From positions 49,040 through 113,039 of IMG/VR virus record IMGVR_UViG_3300033121_002354: a DNA stretch of 64,000 nt, one strand, 5' to 3'. This document shows positions 1,302 to 64,000 of this stretch, piece after piece. The notes beneath the pieces were generated by a model. It ran no database searches. It was not told the origin of the DNA and was given only the letters and a program-made list of their open reading frames with translations. The translations under genes were made by a program, and so were the position numbers. Numbering within the stretch: the stretch's first letter is position 1; every line of letters starts with the position of its first letter. This stretch comes from a virus (Duplodnaviria > Caudoviricetes).

Positions 1302-4300
1302 TGTCTACTACAATCAATAATATAAGAATAAACAATGTAGATCCAGAGATCGTTGATGTATACACAAAATTGCATCCATTTTTCTCTTGGGATTTTGAGT
1401 CTAACGCTGCAAGTATTGCACAGCACGCTTTTGAAATAAAAATAGGTACATATAACAGATATGTTGGTAGTGAGCTTTTTGAGGGGAATATAGTATCATC
1501 TGTTGTTGAATCTACTGTTTCTAGTTATGAATATACAAACTACGATCTGAAAAGGGGCACAACTTATTACGGACAAGTTAGGGCATGGGATTCAGAATTC
1601 GTATTAGATGTTGATACCAGTCAAAACAGAAAACACCTTTCTAATTGGTTGACTTTTTCTTTCAAAGTTAATCAACTGCCATATGTTACCAACGCAAAGA
1701 TATCACCAAGTCACCCATTTTCTTCCGAAGATTTATCGGTTTCATACAAATATATCGATGCCGATAGTCATGAGGAATTTGGCACAAAAATAAGATGGTA
1801 TAAATTTGGTGTACTACAAGAGTCATTTAATGATCTTCAAACGCTTCCAAGTAAAAACATAACCATTGGAGACACTTGGAGTGCAAAAATAATTCCTTTT
1901 GACGGTCTTGAATATGGAGTCCCTTCAGAAACAAACGCTGTAGAGATAGAGTCTTCTCCAGCAGAATTTACTACTCTCGAAATACTCCCCGCTGACCCAA
2001 ACATTCACGATCTACTGAAAGTCAATTATGAATTTGATAATTCAAATCCATATCTCAATCCAGATAGCGTTATAGTAGATTTTGTGTGGTACGTTAACGA
2101 CGTAGAACAAACGGAGACCGGACAAACTGTTAGATTGTCATTGGCAAAAGATGATGTCGTAAAAGCAAAACTAAAAATATCGTATTTAGGGTCTATTATT
2201 TCAGAATCCGAAACAGACGAAGTAACAATATCTGATGCTTCGTGGAAAATTTTTGATTTAAAAGTGAACGGTTATAAAGAGCCAATAGGTTTAACAGATT
2301 TAGCTCCTTTAGTGACATGGAAAGTATTTAAGTCGCAAGAAACATCAAAAGAGTTGCCAGCTTATTTCAGGCTTCTTATAACCAAAACTCCATCTTTGCA
2401 AACTCCCGTATTTGATACTGGAGCTATAGAATACACAACGAACTCTTATCAAATAGAAGACCTTGATCGTGGACAAACATATTTCGTCCATGTTGGTGTT
2501 GGTGATACTAGCAGCGATCTATTGTATGAAACAATAGAAATTGTCACAAGTGGATCATCTTGGAAAGAGAACGTACTAAACAATGTTGGTTGGACTGTCG
2601 AGTTTAAATTTAAGTTAGTAGATTCAGCCGATACAAATTTTCAATCTGTCTCTATTCATGACGGAACAAAGTTCTGTTTGCTTTCGCTGTACAAAAACAA
2701 AATCAAGTTCTTTTCCGTAGATGAATATGAGTATGACATTCCAACAGAAAATCCATTTACCGAATTTCAGGTCGTAAGAATCACAGGATTTAATAGCGAT
2801 TGCCAATTGTATTTTAATAACAATTTAGCCCTCGATTTAAGTGGCAAACTAAATTCTTTATCACAAGCAAAGAGACTAGAATTTGGAGATATGAATCCTG
2901 CCATTGCAACTTCTGGAGTTTGGAGCTTTTTTAGATATTCTACTTCTGGAGCATTCAACGTAGACACTCTTAGTGATGATAACGATTTTGATTTTTATGA
3001 AGTAGTAAACATTCAAAATGGCTCAATCGAAGATTTCAAGAACGGCTTTATCGCTTGGAATCCAGATTCTTCGAGTGATTCCTCTGTAATATTTACTCTG
3101 AATGAAAATTCAAAAGAGGTAGTACTCCCAACTGTTAATCGCAATTTTTCTCCTATAACATCCATTTTTATAGACAAAAACAACAACAAATATATAGCAA
3201 GTGCTAACGGCATAAGAGCACTGTATGGTTCCAAACATGAACCTGACTACTTTTTAGACACAAGTTTGGGCACTCTGACCATATCGGACTTCGATGTAAT
3301 TTCGAACATAGAAGAATCTGATCTAAGTGATGTTCAGTATTTTTCTAATGATTCTTTGTATATTGATACGACCGCAAGTAATATAAATGAATACGATCCA
3401 TCATCTGTATCTCACACTATTCACTATTTGTCACAAAGAGCACCTGGACATAAGTGGTTTGATAACGTAGATAACGCTAAGGGATGGCAAGTTGAGCTGA
3501 CTTTTAATCTTTTAAAATTAGAACAGGAGCCATTCGTAGAAGATGATCTCACCAAGGATGGAGTGGGAATCTATATAAATGATGGAGCCCACCAAGAAAC
3601 TATAACTTTTTCTCAAAATTCCATCACGTTACAAAATGCAAACATTTTTGTGAATGTGAATGCAAGTCTAACTAGAGTTTACAGAATTGTTGGTCAAGGG
3701 AATAACATAAAAATATATCAACGACTTGCAAGTGTTTCTGCTGGAAACGAACAATTGCTGTTAGACGGGACTGGACTTTTTACAGAAACTGCTACACCGG
3801 CAGCAAACAGCAGAAAACCAAAAATGGCAGTTGACAGTGACAACAATTATCACGCTGTATGGGGAGATGATTCTGGCGGAAAAGGTTCAATTCTTTATTC
3901 TAAATTTAGTGGAGGTGAATGGGGAAAAACCGAAGTCGTAGTAGAATCTGCAGCATTTACTCTCAAAAATCCAGATATATATATAAACACCGACAATAAC
4001 ATCTATGTTGTTTACGAAGATTTGTCTTATAACCGTCCTGAAATAAGTGTGAGCATAAAAGACACTGTAGGATGGAATCCAAAAATACGATTAACAAGCA
4101 TAAATTCCAAGAAGAACGGGCCAAAAATTACCGGAGACAGTTTTGGGAATATTTATGTTGTATGGGAAGATGACCGAAATGGACACTCTGAACTATTTTG
4201 TGCAATCCGCAACAAACAGTTGTTAGCTTGGAATTCTAGTGCTCAATTTGGGAATGATACAAATATTGTTAGTTACACTACTAAAGATTTAAACCTAAAG

Positions 4301-7300
4301 AATAAGTCTGTTGATTTCAGAAACCCATCGCTAGTTTTTGCTTATCCAAAAGTGTATGTTGCATTCGAAGCAGATTTTGGAGATTCATCAGCCATCTATG
4401 TAAGTACGTTTGACATATTGGCAAAAGATTGGTTTTCATCTGGATTTCCACAATTCAAAACCGATGGAACATTATCTGGTACAGGAACTAGTATACTAGT
4501 AAGTGACCTAGAAAGAAATTGTGTTAAACCAGATATTACTACAGCAACAACCAGTCAAGTTGTGATAGTGTGGGAAGACAGAACAGAAAAAGTTGCACAA
4601 ATATGGGGCAAAGCTTTATTTGTTGCAGATGACTCCGAATTAACGCCTGCCACACAAGTAACTCACCGTTCTGTTTCGTGCAGAAATCCGGTAGTGTCAT
4701 CCATTATTCCGAATGATTCTGTTTCTATCTTTTTTGAATCATACAACAAAATCGTTTCTTCGAATGAAGTTATAGACATAATAGGGACTGATGAAGGCAC
4801 AAAAATTGATTACAACGAGCTTGGAGAAATATTCCACAGCTCTTACAATGGTGTATCAGGGATATTTTTCGGCTCCGCTACAGGATTTGATGATGATGTA
4901 GTTTTAACCGGAAACGACAATAAAGCCTTTAATCCTGCAGCAGTCAAAAAGTCGGCTTCAAGCTCTTTCATTATTACATATGACTATTTTAAAAATAGTG
5001 GTGATACAACACTTGAGAGCAAAGAACATCCAGAATTTTATTTAATAGGTGATGCAACAGTTACAGACGACACTGGACTAAATTCTGTTTCTTTTGAAAC
5101 AAATAGCACATCCACAGTTTCTATCCTTAATACAAAAGAATTTGCCATAGGCGATATATCTGATTCATTGTCTACCAAAATGCAAATCAAAAACTTAAAA
5201 ATGTATTTTGGATATAGTGACAAGCCATTATCAGTACTTGCAATAAATGAATCTTCTGCACCAACTTGGCCAGATGACAGAGTTTTCGATGTGTTTGCTG
5301 ACGTAACTGGCGGAATTTTGTCAGGGACATTTTCTGGCTTAACCTATTTTAACACCAAAGATTCGTCTATAAAGTTGATACCCCTTGAAACAGGCAAGAC
5401 CAATTTCACTATTACAGCAATCAATTACTCTAAAAACGGAATATGGTTTGTTGGTACTGATACAGCGGTATACTTTTCAGTTGATGGTGGTCAAAATTGG
5501 TCAAGTCAGGCTTTGGACTACGTACAAGAAATTGCAATGGATAGCAATGGAAATGCTGTAGTTGTAACAGTTAGTGGCATTTACACTATTTCTATTAATA
5601 TTGCTCAAAATACTGTTTCTTCGCTTACTCCTCGTATTTTGCGTACAAACCTAAGAACTGTTGCCGTTGATGAAAATGATATCATTTGGGCAGGAGGAGA
5701 TGACGGATTAATAAGAATTGATGAAAACAATTCTGTCATTTCATTTAATTCTTCTAATGGGCTGTCTTCGAACCATGTTAACGACATAGTTATCGTCAAT
5801 AAGGCAAACAGATTTATTGCAACCGCAAACGGCATAAATAAAATGAGCGGTTTTGCGTTTGAGGCGATAAACACGTCAACTCACGATATAGGAAGCAACA
5901 ATATCCTTAGTTTGGCCTATAATTCAACAACTAAAAGTTTGTGGTTTTCTGCTCTAAATAAGTTGTACGAAATGACATTTAGAGATCCAGGAACAGACCG
6001 CATACCGGATGAAATAGAAGAATATGATACAGAAATATCTTTGAATGAATCATATGACAAATCTACATATTTTATTTTAGATACAGACCTTCTTGTTTCA
6101 GATGGTACTACGCTAGAAATTAATTCAGAATCTTCAAAGGTGTACATCAACAAAAACTTGATTGAGTTTGGCTACACCATTGATTCTAAGAATAAGTCAA
6201 TAGTTTTTGATGCAGATATTAAGCCAGATGACATTGTAGAGATACAAATATCTAATAAACTGAAAGTGTTTAAGGATTTCGACCAGAACAAAATAGAGAA
6301 AGAAATTTCTGGAGAATACAAAACTGTCATTTCAAAGCTTGCTATCACTAGCCAAGGACAGCTTTTAGCTCTTTCAAATTCACAAAATTCTTCTCTTTTT
6401 GCTCACGCAGGCACAGCTAGCATTCCTTTTACAATTACGACCATTGACAGAGATAAACCAGCAGCCTGCTTACAACTAGTGGATCAACTTTCCAAAAGTA
6501 AGTTTAGATTCAAAGTTTTGGCTTCTGATGAAACAACCAATGTAGATAAAATGATTGTTTCAATCTATGACAATTTTACATCCGATGGAGAAACCCCGCT
6601 AGATTATGTGCCATACAGTCAGTTTGTCGTGCAAGATATAGGCGAAACACTAAACGAATTTTCTACTTCCTTGGATATCCCATCTACAGCAACAATAGGC
6701 ACAAATGAATATAGCGTCGGCAAAGGAAAATTTCTAGCTACCCTAACATTTGGTCAAGTAACTTATATATATGCCATTACTAGTAGTCCTGTAATAGTTT
6801 TCAGGATGAATACAGCAGAAGAAGTTTGGACCCCAATATGTGCAATCGCAAATGGTAGTAGCGATATTAAAGTGAACGCCGTTGAAACAGTCAGTAACGC
6901 CCTGTATATCATGACAGGAAGCAGTACTCAATCTAATAGGGGACAAATATATAAATGTGCTGATGGAGAAAACTTCATAACTGTTGGGACTATTGGCAAC
7001 AATGCAAACTGTTTGACCGTAAGTCAGGACAATACAATATTTTTTGGTAACGATGCCGGTACTATATATTCCTATACAAATGGGTCTTTGTCTCAATCTT
7101 ATACAGGCATAGGGGCTACAATAAATTCTTTGGGAGTTATAGAAAACAGTCTAATTGCTGCTACTGGCAATTCTGGAAGACTTTATTTGATAAGCATGGA
7201 AACCGGAGATGTATCAATAATATATCAGTCTAAAGAAACTAATATATCAGATTTGTTAATAAGTGATACAATTTTCATTTCTGGGTCAGATTCCAGCATT

Positions 7301-48060: not shown

Positions 48061-48873
48061 GTGGTCAAGTGTATGTTGTGTGGTTTTGAATTTAAACAGA
48101 TAACTAGTAGTGGTCATCTACGAAAACACAATATAGATATTGGTGAATACAAAAAGTTGTTTCCTGAAGCAGAGGTAATTTCTAAAGAAATTTGTGAATT
48201 ACGTTCCAAGTTGACAAATGACCGAATCCTTAAAGGAATTCATTTTGTTCCATTTAGAGATATTAAAGGATTGGCTAGAAAAATACACGACCAATACAAA
48301 ATTAAAGACAGACGCGATTTTGAGTATGTTTGTATTAGATGTGGAATTAAAAAGTATGCAGAATGCCGTTCGACAGCAAAGAAAAGAAAATTTTGCTCGA
48401 ACAAGTGTCGCATGTTGCACATTCAAGAGCATGATGAATTACTAAAAGAGTTTTCTAGAAAAGTCAGTAGAGCAACAACCGGAATTCCCAAGAGAGGTGG
48501 TTATAGTCGTGCTCGCGGAGGTGTAAGAGAGGATATAGGACACTATGTCAGGAGCGGGTGGGAAGCGGACATTTGTCGTATTTTTATATATTACAATAAG
48601 CCTTATGAATATGAAAAATATGTTGTGAAGTTACAACACGGCAAAAATAGTCTTACATGGATTATTGATTTTATTGATACACAAAAACATATATCTAACG
48701 GACTGATCGAGGTTAAAGGTTGGTGGGACAAAAAAAGTAAACTCAAATTAAAGTTGCTAAAGAAGCAGTATCCTGATATATATAAGCGGTTGACAATTAT
48801 TGATTTTCACAAAATGAAAGATCTTATTGTCAAATATAAGGGAGTAATTAATGGGTGGGAAAGTTCCAAATAG
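48061..48873 (+). CDS. Zinc-finger PD-(D/E)xK-type endonuclease, putative free-standing homing endonuclease
   Basis: CMLC..HLRKH and CIRC..FCSNKC modules followed by VRSGWEA..YEYE..IDF..IEVKGWW nuclease domain. Confidence 0.7.
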   Translation: MVKCMLCGFEFKQITSSGHLRKHNIDIGEYKKLFPEAEVISKEICELRSKLTNDRILKGIHFVPFRDIKGLARKIHDQYKIKDRRDFEYVCIRCGIKKYAECRSTAKKRKFCSNKCRMLHIQEHDELLKEFSRKVSRATTGIPKRGGYSRARGGVREDIGHYVRSGWEADICRIFIYYNKPYEYEKYVVKLQHGKNSLTWIIDFIDTQKHISNGLIEVKGWWDKKSKLKLKLLKKQYPDIYKRLTIIDFHKMKDLIVKYKGVINGWESSK

Positions 48874-48891
48874 AAAGGGGGTTTTAATACT

Positions 48892-50186
48892 ATGACAATA
48901 AAAAAATCTGATTTCGCTCATTTGCATTGTCATAGTGTTTAGCTCTGCCCCGTCTTAGTGGCGGGGTAGAGCTAACACTAGTTTTTTCAGCATTTGATGG
49001 CTTTTCCCAGATAAAAGATCTTCCTAGAACTGCCAAGTTGCATGGCCAGCGGGCTATAGCGTTGACAGATCATGGTACACTTGGTGGAGCAATACAGTTT
49101 ATAAAGGCATGCAGAGAAGAAAATATAAAGCCAATTTTAGGATCAGAATTTTATTGCAGTCGTAATCGCAGAGCAAAATCAAAAAAGGAACAACCAGAGG
49201 GCAAACGGGGCAATAGACACTTAAATTTGTTTGCCAAAAACCTTACGGGCTATAAAAATCTTTGTACGCTTTCTCAGCGTTCTTATCTTGAGGGATACTA
49301 TTATTCACCAAGAATAGACTTTGAGTTATTGCAAGAATTTAGTAAAGGATTGATTTGCTCAAGTGCGTGCCTCAGCAATGTAATCAACTGGAACCTGTCG
49401 ATAGACAGATATGACCTTGCAAAAAAAGCAGCCACTATTCTCAAGGATATTTTTAAGAAAGATTTTTATCTTGAAATGATGTATCATGGAATGGATACAC
49501 AAAGCAAGATACTTCCATTAATCAAAAAGCTGTCAGTAGAGTTGGATATAAAAACCATTCCGACATTTGACAGTCATTACACAAACAAGGAAGACGCCAA
49601 ATATCAAGAAATAGTGGAATGTATTTCTCAGAAGAGATGTTACAAAGATCCAGACCGATATCATTTTCCTTATCAGGAATTTTATATCAAGTCTACAGAA
49701 GAGGTGTGTAAGGTATTTGGTCACTTACCGCAAACGATCAAGAACACCCAAGAGATAGTAGACAAATGTGATTTGGATGATCTTAAGTTTGGCGGCATGC
49801 TTCTGCCCAAGTTTGATGTTCCCATAGGGTTTGAAAGTGATTATAATTATTTAGCACATCTTGCTTGGGACGGACTTAAGAAAAAGGGAAAAGATAAAGA
49901 TCCAAGATATGTAGAGCGGTTAACTCTTGAGTTGAGCGACACCAAGTTGGTGTGGATAACCAAAAAGCTAGATTTCAAGGCTTACTTTCTTATAGTGTGG
50001 GATTTCTGCAATTTCATGAAGAAAGAGAAAATTCCATATGACGTTAGAGGTTCTGGTAACGGCTCTCTGTTGCTTTGGTGTTTGGGAATAACTAACATTG
50101 ATAGTGTATTGTACGGTTTGAGTTGGCCCCGATTCTTAGGATTTGATTCGGTCAAATATATCTGTTTAGATGATATTGGGTTATAA
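48892..50186 (+). CDS. dnaE: DNA polymerase III alpha, N-terminal subunit (PHP + part of palm), interrupted by a 44-nt insert; join 48892-48939 with 48984-50186 (416 aa)
   Basis: MTIKKSDFAHLHCHSV + FSAFDGFSQIKDL..AIALTDHG rebuilds the HxHSxYSxxDG motif; KPILGSEFY, GYKNL, RGSGNGSL; AAGGGGG SD before 48892. Confidence 0.9.
48933..48983 (+). other. Candidate translational-bypass element (GTT take-off, TAG, hairpin, GTT landing)
   Basis: GTT 48937-39, TAG 48940-42, 21-bp stem 48933-48980 with two G-U pairs, one bulge and a 5-nt loop, GTT 48981-83 in the downstream dnaE frame. Confidence 0.75.
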
Positions 50187-52111
50187 TGGCATTAACTCTA
50201 GAACAAGTTGTTGATATAGCCAAGCTTCATCCAGAGTATGATGAGCAACGTGTTTCTAGTGAGCTAGAATACATAAAAAATAACGACCTTCAAAAAGACT
50301 TCTTGGATGTTTGTGAAGCCGCCCTTGCCAAAGGTCAACCAGGAAGTAAGAATGTTTTAAATTCTTTTGTTTTTTATTTGATACGTATCACTTCCTGCAA
50401 GCCAGTTGACAAATTCGATGTACCCAAACGCAGAGCTTATGTCCGAGATGGCTGGCCTGACGTTGATATAGATGTTTGTTACCTGCATAGAAGTACTTTA
50501 ATTGCTTATGCGAAATCAAAATATGGTGAAGGCAACGTTGCGACCATTGGTACTGTTGGTAAACTAGAAATTAAATCGGCTATTCACAAAGCAATTCTAG
50601 TTCTTGATCCCACCAAGTCTTATAACAAAGAAAACGGATTTGGCAGGAAGCAACTAGAAAGAGATCCTAATTTCCAACTTAAGCAAGAAATATGTGATTC
50701 CCTTCCAAATATTATGAAAAAGGAGGATGGGACACGTATAAGGAAAATCAAAGAGGCTTACGATACTTATCCAGAGTTTAAGAGATATATGGATAAGTAT
50801 CCAAAAATTTACAAGCTTGCTCTTAAGCTTGAGGGTACGATTGCTTCGTATGGCACTCATGCTGCGGGTGTAATTCTCTCTCCAATTCCGCTGGAACAGA
50901 TATGCCCCCTTCATCTTTCGAAAAAGAAAAAAGAAGATGCTCGCAACGATGCCGATGCTTCTGAGAAGTATGAGTGGTGTACTCAATTCACCATGACCGA
51001 TGTTGAAGCAATTGGCTTGCCCAAGATGGACTTCTTAGGAATTTCAACCGAAACGTCCATTGCTCGTTGTTTTGAGACGGTTAAAAAATCATATAACATT
51101 GAACTAGATCGTGATAACATACCCATTGATACACAAACTCTTGAGCTGTTAAACAGAGGAGAAGGGGTTGGCGTATTTCAGGCCGAAACAAGACCGATGC
51201 AAAATGTCATGCGGCAAATCGGCATAGATAGTTTTGAAGATATTATCGCTTGTGTTTCTATTTTTCGTCCAGGTCCGATGCAGTATATTGACCAGTATGC
51301 TGATCGTAAACACGGGAAAGACGAAGTATCTTATTTGCATCCTTTGTATGAAAAAATTGCATCTTCGACATATGCTATCTTGATTTATCAAGAACAGATC
51401 ATGCGAATTTTCGTTGACTTAGCCCAACTAAGTGAAAACGATGGATACAAATTTATTAAGGGTTGTGCCAAAAAGAATCCAAAAATAGTTGAGGCAATGT
51501 TAGAGAAGTTTATTGCTGGTTGTGCTGTTAACAACATATCTCCTAAAATAGCAAAGAAAATTGCTGACGACTTACACCAATTCGCTGGATACAGCTTCAA
51601 CTTAAGTCATGCTACAGGATATGCTAAGAAGAGTGCTACATGTAGTTATTTAAAAGCACATTTTCCTGCAGAGTTTATTGAGGCACGGTTGACGGTTGAA
51701 TATATACGCAAATCTAAAAGCATGGAGATATATAGACAAGAAGCACAAAGAATGGGGTTTAAGATACTTAAACCTGATTTGAATAAGTCTGGAATTGATT
51801 GGCAGATAGTGGATCAGAAAACGCTTTTAGAGCCATTGATAGTAAAAGGTATTGGGGTTGTAGCGGCACAAGAAATTATTAAGTGTAGACCTTATGACCC
51901 AAACAATCTTCTTGTTGATTTTTCTAAGAAAATTGGATTGAAAAATGCATTGCACGTAACCAAGAGAGAGATTGACGGAATGTATTCTGCTGGAATGTGG
52001 CAGGGGTACGGAACAAGGGAAAAGGTTGTGGAAACTTTTGAAAAGGCGAAGGAGTACGGAAAAAGAAACAGGGGCAGACAAATAGGTGGAAATTTATTTG
52101 GCAAACAGTGA
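50186..52111 (+). CDS. dnaE: DNA polymerase III alpha, catalytic subunit (palm/thumb/fingers/HhH; no OB-fold tail evident)
   Basis: WPDVDID, THAAGV, KMDFLG, GVFQ, FRPGPM, IYQEQIM, YSFNLSHATGY, PDLNKS, VKGIG. Confidence 0.93.
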   Translation: MALTLEQVVDIAKLHPEYDEQRVSSELEYIKNNDLQKDFLDVCEAALAKGQPGSKNVLNSFVFYLIRITSCKPVDKFDVPKRRAYVRDGWPDVDIDVCYLHRSTLIAYAKSKYGEGNVATIGTVGKLEIKSAIHKAILVLDPTKSYNKENGFGRKQLERDPNFQLKQEICDSLPNIMKKEDGTRIRKIKEAYDTYPEFKRYMDKYPKIYKLALKLEGTIASYGTHAAGVILSPIPLEQICPLHLSKKKKEDARNDADASEKYEWCTQFTMTDVEAIGLPKMDFLGISTETSIARCFETVKKSYNIELDRDNIPIDTQTLELLNRGEGVGVFQAETRPMQNVMRQIGIDSFEDIIACVSIFRPGPMQYIDQYADRKHGKDEVSYLHPLYEKIASSTYAILIYQEQIMRIFVDLAQLSENDGYKFIKGCAKKNPKIVEAMLEKFIAGCAVNNISPKIAKKIADDLHQFAGYSFNLSHATGYAKKSATCSYLKAHFPAEFIEARLTVEYIRKSKSMEIYRQEAQRMGFKILKPDLNKSGIDWQIVDQKTLLEPLIVKGIGVVAAQEIIKCRPYDPNNLLVDFSKKIGLKNALHVTKREIDGMYSAGMWQGYGTREKVVETFEKAKEYGKRNRGRQIGGNLFGKQ

Positions 52112-62799: not shown

Positions 62800-62832
62800 T
62801 GAACTACCGCAGGGCTGAAGACCCTGCGGTTT
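62800..62832 (-). repeat. IS200/IS605 right-end hairpin and cleavage tetranucleotide
   Basis: Minus strand AAACCGCAGGG-TCTTCAG-CCCTGCGGT-AG-TTCA, overlapping the tnpB stop codon. Confidence 0.8.
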
Positions 62833-64000
62833 CGTGATTCATAGACTCCAGATTACTAATGGACGCCTCCTCACGTTTTTGTTTTGATTCCGACTGCGAT
62901 CCGCATCCAGAATATATTACTAATCCTTGCTCTAATATGTTTAACGCAGCATTAACATCACGATCCAACTCCTCCGAACACTTCGGACAAACCCATGTCC
63001 GATCAGACAAAGTTAAATCACTGTTAATGAACTTACAGTTATTACAAGTCTTCGAAGAAGGAAAGAACCTGTCAATCTGGACAAAAGTCCTTCCATTCCA
63101 CTCTGACTTGTATTGCAGTTGGCGAACAAACTCGCTCCAAGATACATCTGCAATAGCTTTCGCCAACTTGTGGTTCTTCATCATATTAGCTACAGCCAAA
63201 CTTTCCATGCATATCGTTTGGTTTTCACGAACTATGCTGGATGAAATCTGGTGTAAATGATTATGACGAATATTGTAGATCATTTCATGAATCTTGGCAA
63301 CCCTGACTCGTTGCTTCCACCTATTATTAGAGCCTTTGGCTTTCTTAGCCAACTGACGTTGCTCATACGCCAATTGTTTTTCGTATTTACGAGTAGTTTT
63401 GATATTAGGATAGACAGTGCCATCAGAACAAATGGCTAAATCCTTAACTCCTAAGTCAACACCGACCTGTTTATCAGTTTTGGCATATGGAGTATGTTCT
63501 GTTTCAACAGTGATGGCAACAAAATATTTACCAGATGGTTTTCTGGAAATTGTAGCGAACAGGATTTTTCCAGTTAATGGACGATCTTCTTTGACCTTTA
63601 TAGGTTCTTTGAACTTAGGAAGAAACAGTTTACCTTGTTCATATTTAACGAATTGTGGAGCCCTGAAAGATTGTTTGTTTTTTCTGGACTTAAATCGTGG
63701 GAACTTAGCTTGCTTATGAAAGAACTTATTGTATGCTACATCTAAGTCCCTTAGAGCTGCTTGAAGAGTTTGAGAATTAATCTCTTTCATCCAAGCATAT
63801 TGTTCTTCTTTTTTAAGGTCTGTGAGGGACTTTGCGTTGTCGTAATAGTTAAGAGTTTTCTTACTTTCGAGGTATAATGTTTTACGTTCGTCAAGGAAGT
63901 GATTGAATACAAATCGCTTCGCTCCGAAGTGTTTAGCAAGCAGTATTGCTTGTTCTTCGGTTGGATATATGCGGTATTTAAATGCTTTCGTGACGATCAT
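62804..64000 (-). CDS. tnpB: RNA-guided endonuclease TnpB
   Basis: KAFKYRIYPT HTH; RuvC-I VGVDLG, RuvC-II ICMESL, zinc ribbon CNNC..CPKC, RuvC-III DRDVNAA all intact. Confidence 0.95.
   Translation of the reverse strand: MIVTKAFKYRIYPTEEQAILLAKHFGAKRFVFNHFLDERKTLYLESKKTLNYYDNAKSLTDLKKEEQYAWMKEINSQTLQAALRDLDVAYNKFFHKQAKFPRFKSRKNKQSFRAPQFVKYEQGKLFLPKFKEPIKVKEDRPLTGKILFATISRKPSGKYFVAITVETEHTPYAKTDKQVGVDLGVKDLAICSDGTVYPNIKTTRKYEKQLAYEQRQLAKKAKGSNNRWKQRVRVAKIHEMIYNIRHNHLHQISSSIVRENQTICMESLAVANMMKNHKLAKAIADVSWSEFVRQLQYKSEWNGRTFVQIDRFFPSSKTCNNCKFINSDLTLSDRTWVCPKCSEELDRDVNAALNILEQGLVIYSGCGSQSESKQKREEASISNLESMNHETAGSSALR

Follow-up and report, generated by a model that had tools for sequence, protein, structure and literature searches.

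Mitochondria of Magnusiomyces capitatus carry 'byp' elements, hairpin-forming inserts of 27-55 nucleotides (nt) that are bypassed in translation and appear mobile. Collaborative or 'intronless' homing is known from free-standing endonucleases of T4-like phages and cyanophages, as represented by the seg and mob genes and by the psbA intron with F-CphI. In bacteria and phages, efficient long-range ribosome hopping has so far meant one element, phage T4 gene 60 and its direct homologues, and the gene 60 cassette has been called 'unique' (Manning and Atkins, 2022, bioRxiv 10.1101/2022.08.31.505936). Here we describe a locus in a stretch of 64,000 nt of viral DNA (IMG/VR record IMGVR_UViG_3300033121_002354, positions 49,040 to 113,039; hereafter the window), where the DNA polymerase gene dnaE is interrupted near its start by a short hairpin insert that is probably hopped over by ribosomes, directly downstream of a gene for a free-standing nuclease that may target uninterrupted dnaE alleles. 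The window makes up the last 64 kb (3′ end) of the 113-kb record, whose CheckV completeness of 23% marks it as part of a phage genome of roughly half a megabase (megaphage). No paper on a dnaE bypass was found in literature searches.

The locus is encoded on the plus strand of the window, and its layout can be read from the sequence. The nuclease gene (48061-48873; stop codon 48871-48873) encodes 270 amino acids (aa) and is separated by an 18 nt spacer (48874-48891), containing a Shine-Dalgarno-like GGGGG at 48877-48881, from the ATG of dnaE at 48892. The first 16 codons of dnaE (48892-48939, MTIKKSDFAHLHCHSV) end with the putative take-off codon GTT (48937-48939, Val-16). A TAG codon (48940-48942), 48 nt into the gene, then opens a gap of 41 nt (48940-48980) that is predicted to be untranslated, and the same codon GTT recurs as the putative landing codon at 48981-48983. 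A distance of 44 nt separates the two GTT codons and changes the frame by 2. The landing codon is followed by TTT TCA GCA TTT GAT GGC (FSAFDGFSQIKDL...), and excision of 44 nt yields HLHCHSV-FSAFDG, which restores the spacing of PHP motif I exactly. The rest of the DnaE N-terminal chain (48984-50186) comprises the PHP domain and the first part of the DNA_pol3_alpha domain in Pfam, and the 1,040 aa downstream of the gap are intact and conserved. The first-pass annotation had placed the end of the nuclease gene 18 nt before the dnaE start and a 44 nt insert 48 nt into dnaE, within the most conserved motif of that gene, and every one of these coordinates was confirmed.

The gap folds into a hairpin whose lower stem extends the structure to 48933-48980, with 20 base pairs (bp) and a free energy of -38.5 kcal/mol (z = -8.06; none of 200 shuffles equalled it). 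The 35 nt hairpin core occurs a single time in the window, where 0 occurrences are expected by chance. An independent wastewater sequencing run (X2) contained a variant of the locus, and because it carries the same 44 nt gap, the gap is real DNA and no assembly artefact. Inverted-repeat analysis also predicted an alternative stem upstream of the gap, in which 48886-48904, including the start codon, pairs with 48921-48939, the codons right before take-off. The two arms of 19 nt are 84% complementary, and this inverted repeat could be a counterpart of the gene 60 5′ stem-loop or an initiation gate.

Relatives of the locus were sought in the GenBank phage collection, which gave no DNA or protein match, and in viral contigs, where single-protein scans returned no relatives and alignment-based queries did find them. 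The close nuclease homologues (47-58% identity) are each encoded directly 5′ of a split dnaE gene, with a hairpin gap at the same motif. Together with the window, eight such loci form a set of nine hairpin gaps, in which the take-off and landing codons and the hop length vary by lineage: GTT/GTT over 44 nt in the window, CAG/CAG over 44 nt in L251 and over 51 nt in L002 and L253, CAG/CAA over 52 nt in L252, and ACT/ACT over 37 nt in L003, L004 and L171 and over 36 nt in L173. The two codons are thus identical in eight of the nine gaps and synonymous in the other. A stop codon (TAA, TGA or TAG) follows take-off immediately in eight gaps and one codon later in L251, the predicted stems range from -24 to -46 kcal/mol, and the relatives have GGAG, GAGG or AAGG 4-7 nt 5′ of the landing codon. 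The residues preceding take-off, 16 in the window and 12-14 in the relatives, are the conserved PHP motif itself. L251, the sister of the window in the DnaE tree (support 100/99), has a 44 nt gap that also opens with GTT TAG; its CAG/CAG pair differs from the GTT/GTT of the window by a double change that keeps the match. Compensatory changes were found at 4 of 17 stem pairs in the ACT group and at 7 of 19 in the CAG group.

The hop lengths of 36, 37, 44, 51 and 52 nt correspond to frame offsets of 0, 1 and 2, and three of the hairpin gaps are in frame yet contain stop codons. Because the lengths cover all residues modulo 3 and the in-frame gaps hold stops, frameshifting and read-through are excluded as general explanations, which leaves hopping between matched codons. 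Re-initiation was also ruled out, as the downstream frame of the window has no ATG, GTG or TTG before 49038. An alternative genetic code was discarded, since frames of 100 aa or more between stops account for 95.6% of the window when the standard code (table 11) is applied, and the frame change would persist under any code. An intrinsic terminator was rejected as well; a T run follows the stem in the window only and is lacking in the relatives. These comparisons of sequences strongly support ribosome hopping across the gap.

The X2 variant illustrates which parts of the gap are maintained. Outside the gap, the two sequences differ at only 1 of 293 nt downstream of the landing codon and are identical over the 30 nt before take-off; inside it they are separated by 13 substitutions, one insertion and one deletion. 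Nevertheless X2 keeps the GTT pair, a stop codon (TGA for TAG), the length of 44 nt and the stem energy (-36.6 versus -36.9 kcal/mol). The gap is hypervariable: the two strains share 99.7% identity in the flanking dnaE sequence but have 15 differences in the 44 nt. The 3′ end of the X2 nuclease gene is mostly less than 85% like that of the window.

More distant phages with a related nuclease gene directly 5′ of dnaE carry gaps of only 1-12 nt within the same ten codons, nearly all of which are led by a stop codon. Examples are TCC TAA TGAAG TCC (L212, 11 nt), TCC TAG AGA TCT (L234, 9 nt), ACT TAG GTGT GCT (L188, 10 nt) and TCG TAA AGTT ACG (L092, 10 nt); four loci (L181, L197, L178 and L089) have a His take-off codon, a stop and a landing codon NAY, with gaps of 5-12 nt, and one extra base is found in L086 (TTT TGA) and L087 (TTT CGA). 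In eight of nine short gaps, positions 2 and 3 of the landing codon, if not all three, match the take-off tRNA, a pattern that was noticed post hoc and that could reflect microhomology at the insertion junction. The 9 nt gap of L090 (CAT TAA GGT CCC) falls outside this pattern, its landing codon being unmatched. In L054 (361-420), a gap of 2 nt (CTT TAG, then GAT GGC) offers no good codon for re-pairing; the shift may be of a different type, the gene may be inactive, or the 4.7-kb contig may contain an error. Altogether, more than 20 independent assemblies contain stop-led gaps at this motif.

The nuclease encoded upstream is modular. Pfam identified a C2H2 zinc finger of the ROS/MucR type at residues 4-23, which is followed by a zinc ribbon (CxxC...CxxxC) at residues 91-116 and by a T7-endonuclease-I-like PD-(D/E)xK domain at about residues 150-262, with conserved GHYVRSxWE, D203 and E217-V-K219. 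E168, D203, E217, K219 and both zinc sites are invariant across 24 homologues. The match of residues 162-245 to Phage_endo_I (PF05367) had an E value of 2.3e-5 and a score of 24.5 bits versus a curated cut-off of 29.1, which suggests a distant relative only of the T7 endonuclease I family, below the cut-off of that family. A profile search of the PDB gave T7 endonuclease I as the closest solved structure (1M0D, E = 5e-8), and an AlphaFold2 model of the nuclease had a mean predicted local distance difference test score of 86.5. The first-pass annotation had proposed a homing system that differs from that of T4 in both the nuclease family and the host gene; these two differences were borne out, as the enzyme has the PD-(D/E)xK domain with zinc modules instead of HNH and the interrupted gene is dnaE and not gene 60.

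The same domain was embedded in an open reading frame (ORF) of at least 500 aa at 54 of 160 sampled loci. All seven such ORFs that were scanned (L167, L193, L217, L184, L227, L210 and L179) encode a DnaE whose finger domain is interrupted by an Intein_splicing domain, and the nuclease domain lies inside the intein in each, as detected by Pfam in five and by tBLASTn in L167 and L210; NUMOD3 was present in three. These DnaE inteins (finger domain, Pfam profile position 48; L167:442-5829) carry PD-(D/E)xK, not LAGLIDADG or HNH, and literature searches found no paper describing this class of intein nuclease. Other free-standing relatives have the domain joined to helix-turn-helix arrays or adjoin genes for methylases and recombinases. 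In L148, a 689-aa ORF of helix-turn-helix repeats with a terminal Phage_endo_I domain (3633-5699) lies directly 3′ of a free-standing nuclease homologue, and the two are related nucleases in tandem. The family thus behaves as one of modular homing endonucleases with a standing association with dnaE, and a homing role is credible because the same domain sits inside DnaE inteins.

The first-pass annotation had called for a comparison of related genomes, on the premise that the nuclease and the insert should occur together, and the premise held. Eighty viral dnaE loci reduce to a few dozen distinct alleles, and those lacking the nuclease all have an uninterrupted motif. In a DnaE tree of 40 rows, 17 of the 19 non-redundant alleles with a nuclease gene directly 5′ are broken in PHP motif I, compared with 0 of the 21 alleles without it. 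The distribution of the nuclease is patchy relative to the DnaE phylogeny: its state changes seven times on the 40-row tree, at least five of these changes being forced by well-supported branches. Among independent contrasts on well-supported branches, an average of 4.9 of 5 pointed in the same direction and none in the opposite one; seven pairs were available when all branches were used.

Intact alleles are also found close to the window. Its clade has many intact DnaE N-termini in a protein census, and in the two alleles inspected, P0059 (= L255/L256) and P0088 (= L257), the nuclease is absent and clpP abuts dnaE. L255 and L257 nest among nuclease-bearing relatives, L255 being the sister of L086 (support 100/100). 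Near-complete relatives that lack the nuclease include L067 (87%) and L007 (100%). A functional link between the nuclease and the gap, in which a carrier of the nuclease must have a broken target, is well supported. About 30 database proteins of the DnaE clade (P0045-P0098) begin only after motif I, for example with MQYSKFDG or M..AVGLTDHG, and gene callers have probably truncated many more interrupted dnaE genes than those inspected.

We propose, with a probability of roughly 60%, that dnaE is read by hopping and that the upstream gene encodes a homing-type nuclease which targets the DNA of PHP motif I, the gap sparing its carrier. The ribosome would decode Val-16 (GUU) and then meet UAG and a very stable hairpin, whereupon the peptidyl-tRNA(Val) would detach, the ribosome would slide 44 nt and the tRNA would re-pair with the second GUU. 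Translation would resume at FSAFDG to give an intact PHP motif. The upstream gene would encode a free-standing endonuclease that combines zinc-finger DNA-binding modules with the T7-endonuclease-I-like catalytic domain, and its likeliest target would be the highly conserved motif I DNA of uninterrupted dnaE alleles. Any break in that stretch of about 30 bp, whether a hairpin of 36-52 nt, a stop-led filler of 2-12 nt or a single extra base, would spare the carrier genome from its own nuclease, while hopping or a +1 shift would keep the polymerase intact. From the sequences at hand we infer hopping itself, the cleavage site and the protection by the gap.

A broader and more tentative version, which we regard as possible at best, is that the motif I DNA has been the battleground of a long arms race. 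Sloppily repaired cuts by the nuclease would repeatedly make stop-led gaps, selection would shape these into hop devices of 1-52 nt, and the hairpin would also be a fast-evolving, allele-specific immunity tag against rival nuclease variants, which would explain why it evolves so fast between flanks that hardly differ. Such a history would set out bypass elements in a natural gradation and show how hopping could evolve from nothing.

Several observations weigh against the combination of hopping and homing proposed for the window. With five pairs, the sign test on the contrasts gave p = 0.0625, which is its floor, and the Fisher p of 5e-8 (14/16 versus 0/19 in a 35-row set) ignores shared ancestry. 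L088 and L180 carry the nuclease yet have uninterrupted dnaE; the L088 nuclease is on a very long branch and the L180 motif is atypical (HLHTHFETS). In L095/L232 the nuclease gene is in divergent orientation and the in-frame motif is one residue longer. As for the hop signals, the nearest GAG in the window (48969-48971) is within the stem and 9 nt from the landing codon, farther than in T4 or in the relatives, and the nascent peptide of 16 residues is dissimilar to that of gene 60. Foldseek searches of the PDB with the nuclease model returned weak PD-(D/E)xK matches only (best E = 0.066), and the nearest relative of known structure, T7 endonuclease I, resolves junctions and is not sequence-specific. 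In the window clade, the nuclease and DnaE are about equally diverged (~50-60% identity), and the insert types could have descended vertically, clade by clade, according to the approximately unbiased (AU) test (not rejected, p = 0.55); these two results leave recent transfer in this clade as no more than a possibility. The nuclease tree of the close clade is mostly unresolved. Cassette swapping, which had been considered on the basis of a weak correlation between nuclease and DnaE identity (rho 0.25), was withdrawn, since the AU test did not reject a clade of ACT-type alleles on the DnaE tree.

A further point of this kind comes from L086 and L255, and it bears on whether the insert and the nuclease travel as one cassette, as the first-pass annotation had suggested by analogy with T4. 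A block of 1.67 kb in L086, containing a 211-aa ORF and the nuclease gene, lies wholly in the clpP-dnaE spacer when compared with L255; the two dnaE genes match from their start codons onward (75%), and the L086 gene is broken by a single additional T 51 nt into its coding sequence. The nuclease block and the dnaE break of L086 are two separate events. In support of a cassette, the similarity between L054, which has the nuclease, and L067, which has no homologue of it, breaks exactly at the gap: DNA identity is 29/51 over dnaE codons 1-17, 47/51 right after the gap and about 82% over 1.4 kb. The nuclease of L054 seems to have arrived with a dnaE 5′ end of its own, the gap being the junction. 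The strict T4-like single travelling unit is accordingly only partly supported, and both routes, a gap arriving with the nuclease and a gap arising in place after self-cleavage and imprecise repair, seem to have occurred. L251 holds a scar between the nuclease stop and the true dnaE start (1282-1370), in which a second ribosome-binding site and seven dnaE start codons (VNVDFVQ) are accompanied by the last ~14 codons of a different nuclease allele (..YGGLVPFWETKDF*). Because this scar is a duplicated dnaE start fused to a second nuclease 3′ remnant, recombination has taken place at this spot.

The alternative that survives best, though we hold it to be improbable as a full account, accepts a homing nuclease and takes all gaps as in-place scars of self-cleavage and sloppy repair, or as integration junctions, which are linked to the nuclease by cause without forming one cassette and persist only as ribosomes hop or shift at the stop. 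It accommodates L086 and L255 directly, and it also agrees with the spread of gap positions over about ten codons, with gap lengths from 1 to 52 nt and with landing codons in short gaps that often match only at positions 2-3, as in a microhomology junction. It accounts poorly for the first 17 dnaE codons of L054, which also look foreign when compared with L067, and for the long hairpins, which are elaborate and kept by compensatory changes alongside exact 3-nt codon pairs that co-vary. These compensatory stem changes and co-varying codon pairs argue for selection on an RNA device rather than for a neutral scar.

It is decidedly unlikely that the nuclease serves routine replication or recombination, as a junction resolvase of the replication module that resembles T7 endonuclease I, has no functional tie to the dnaE gap and owes its place next to dnaE to descent. 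The best solved match, the location in a replication gene cluster and an intact gene that has diverged about as much as DnaE across the clade would fit such an enzyme. However, the gene is absent from L067, L007 and the intact-dnaE members of the clade, breaks occur only beside it and on 5-7 separate branches, the same domain is found inside inteins, and about 150 aa of zinc modules are lacking in the 149-aa resolvase.

Still less probable is that the recoding site throttles the dosage or timing of DnaE through a low-efficiency hop, the nuclease gene simply sharing its transcript. The bypass in gene 60 reaches an efficiency of only ~50%, with discussion of a secondary role (10.1101/2022.08.31.505936), and the predicted 5′ stem can sequester the dnaE start codon. 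Close relatives, however, manage without any break, and the break type changes fast and appears only with the nuclease, which would be unexpected for a dosage device.

We give slightly less credence again to a stray palindrome derived from an IS200/IS605 end (PATE/REP-like), inserted into dnaE with no involvement of the nuclease. The window does contain tnpB (minus strand, 62804-64000, reaching the window end), with a Cas12f1-like TNB domain (E = 1e-25), and in its 3′ flank (62800-62840) a GC-rich hairpin, which has the loop TCTTCAG and precedes GGTAG, bears a loose resemblance to the dnaE insert. Against this origin, there is no second copy of the insert in the window, the shared motif is at chance level (5 matches versus 3 expected), the hairpins of the relatives are unrelated in sequence at the same codons, and the association with the nuclease extends to short gaps that are not palindromic. 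Finally, although single-base breaks such as that in the T run of L086 could be sequencing errors, a dnaE pseudogene or an assembly error is hardly credible given the same gap in two independent studies, the intact downstream coding sequence and the many independent assemblies with stop-led gaps.

The second half of the polymerase is encoded separately. The DnaE C-terminal chain (50186-52111, plus strand) comprises the rest of the pol III alpha domain and the finger and HhH domains in Pfam; it is part of the host gene and outside the cassette. In the window the two dnaE halves meet at 50186 as a TGA/ATG overlap, with no intein motifs, and relatives (L002, L003, L004, L086 and L255) have one to three extra genes between the halves, which encode an AAA_28 ATPase, DNA methyltransferases or small ORFs.

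If hopping by dnaE is borne out, it would constitute an independent second hopping system, in another gene, beside a nuclease of another fold and with take-off only 12-16 codons into the gene. Dozens of natural variants would then be available to probe which signals a hop needs, whether a long nascent peptide is dispensable and how far a ribosome can slide. Interrupting the target and fixing the interruption at translation would emerge as a general strategy of selfish nucleases, and the T7-endonuclease-I-like PD-(D/E)xK class would join the homing enzymes of both inteins and free-standing genes. On the practical side, gene callers truncate these polymerase genes, and many database entries start after motif I.

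Among known forms of recoding, the one-base variants resemble the +1 frameshift of the prfB type: in L086 (AAA UUU UGA U), tRNA(Phe), while UGA occupies the A site, is able to re-pair one base downstream. This likeness fits such variants only, whereas the 44 nt gap of the window is uncrossable by frameshifting. The byp elements share with the dnaE gaps the occurrence of many short hairpin-forming inserts that are skipped between matching codons, but they belong to a eukaryotic organelle, occupy dozens of positions in a genome and are not known to be accompanied by a nuclease gene. Collaborative homing likewise involves a free-standing nuclease gene in the spacer beside a conserved gene, with the target of the carrier interrupted or altered; there the interruption is removed by splicing or is a silent polymorphism, while here it would be removed at translation by hopping. 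T7 endonuclease I (PDB 1M0D, 2PFJ) matches the catalytic domain of the nuclease best in sequence and has the same layout E...D...ExK. The T7 enzyme is a domain-swapped, structure-selective resolvase of 149 aa, whereas the protein encoded in the window adds two zinc modules and has relatives in inteins.

The closest parallel is T4 gene 60, whose bypassed sequence belongs to the element of the homing endonuclease MobA (10.1101/2022.08.31.505936, and Bonocora 2011 as cited in that paper). In each system the take-off and landing codons match, a stop codon comes immediately after take-off, the gap begins with a stem-loop and its length is similar (44 nt here and 50 nt in T4), and most relatives of the window also have a Shine-Dalgarno-like purine run before landing. 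The gap in both cases lies in a highly conserved motif of an essential replication enzyme and adjoins a free-standing endonuclease gene, and it would interrupt the recognition site of that endonuclease. The two systems differ in the host motif, DnaE PHP here and the topoisomerase Toprim domain in T4, and in the nuclease, a zinc-finger PD-(D/E)xK enzyme here and HNH in T4. Take-off is at codon 12-16 instead of 46, which leaves no room for a long nascent-peptide signal. The nuclease gene is 5′ of the whole dnaE gene, while in T4 it splits the gene; the sequence, length (1-52 nt) and position of the gap vary widely among lineages here, and co-transfer of gap and nuclease is inconsistent. With dnaE as the interrupted gene and a nuclease outside the HNH family, the locus is an analogue of the gene 60/MobA element and not a member of that family.

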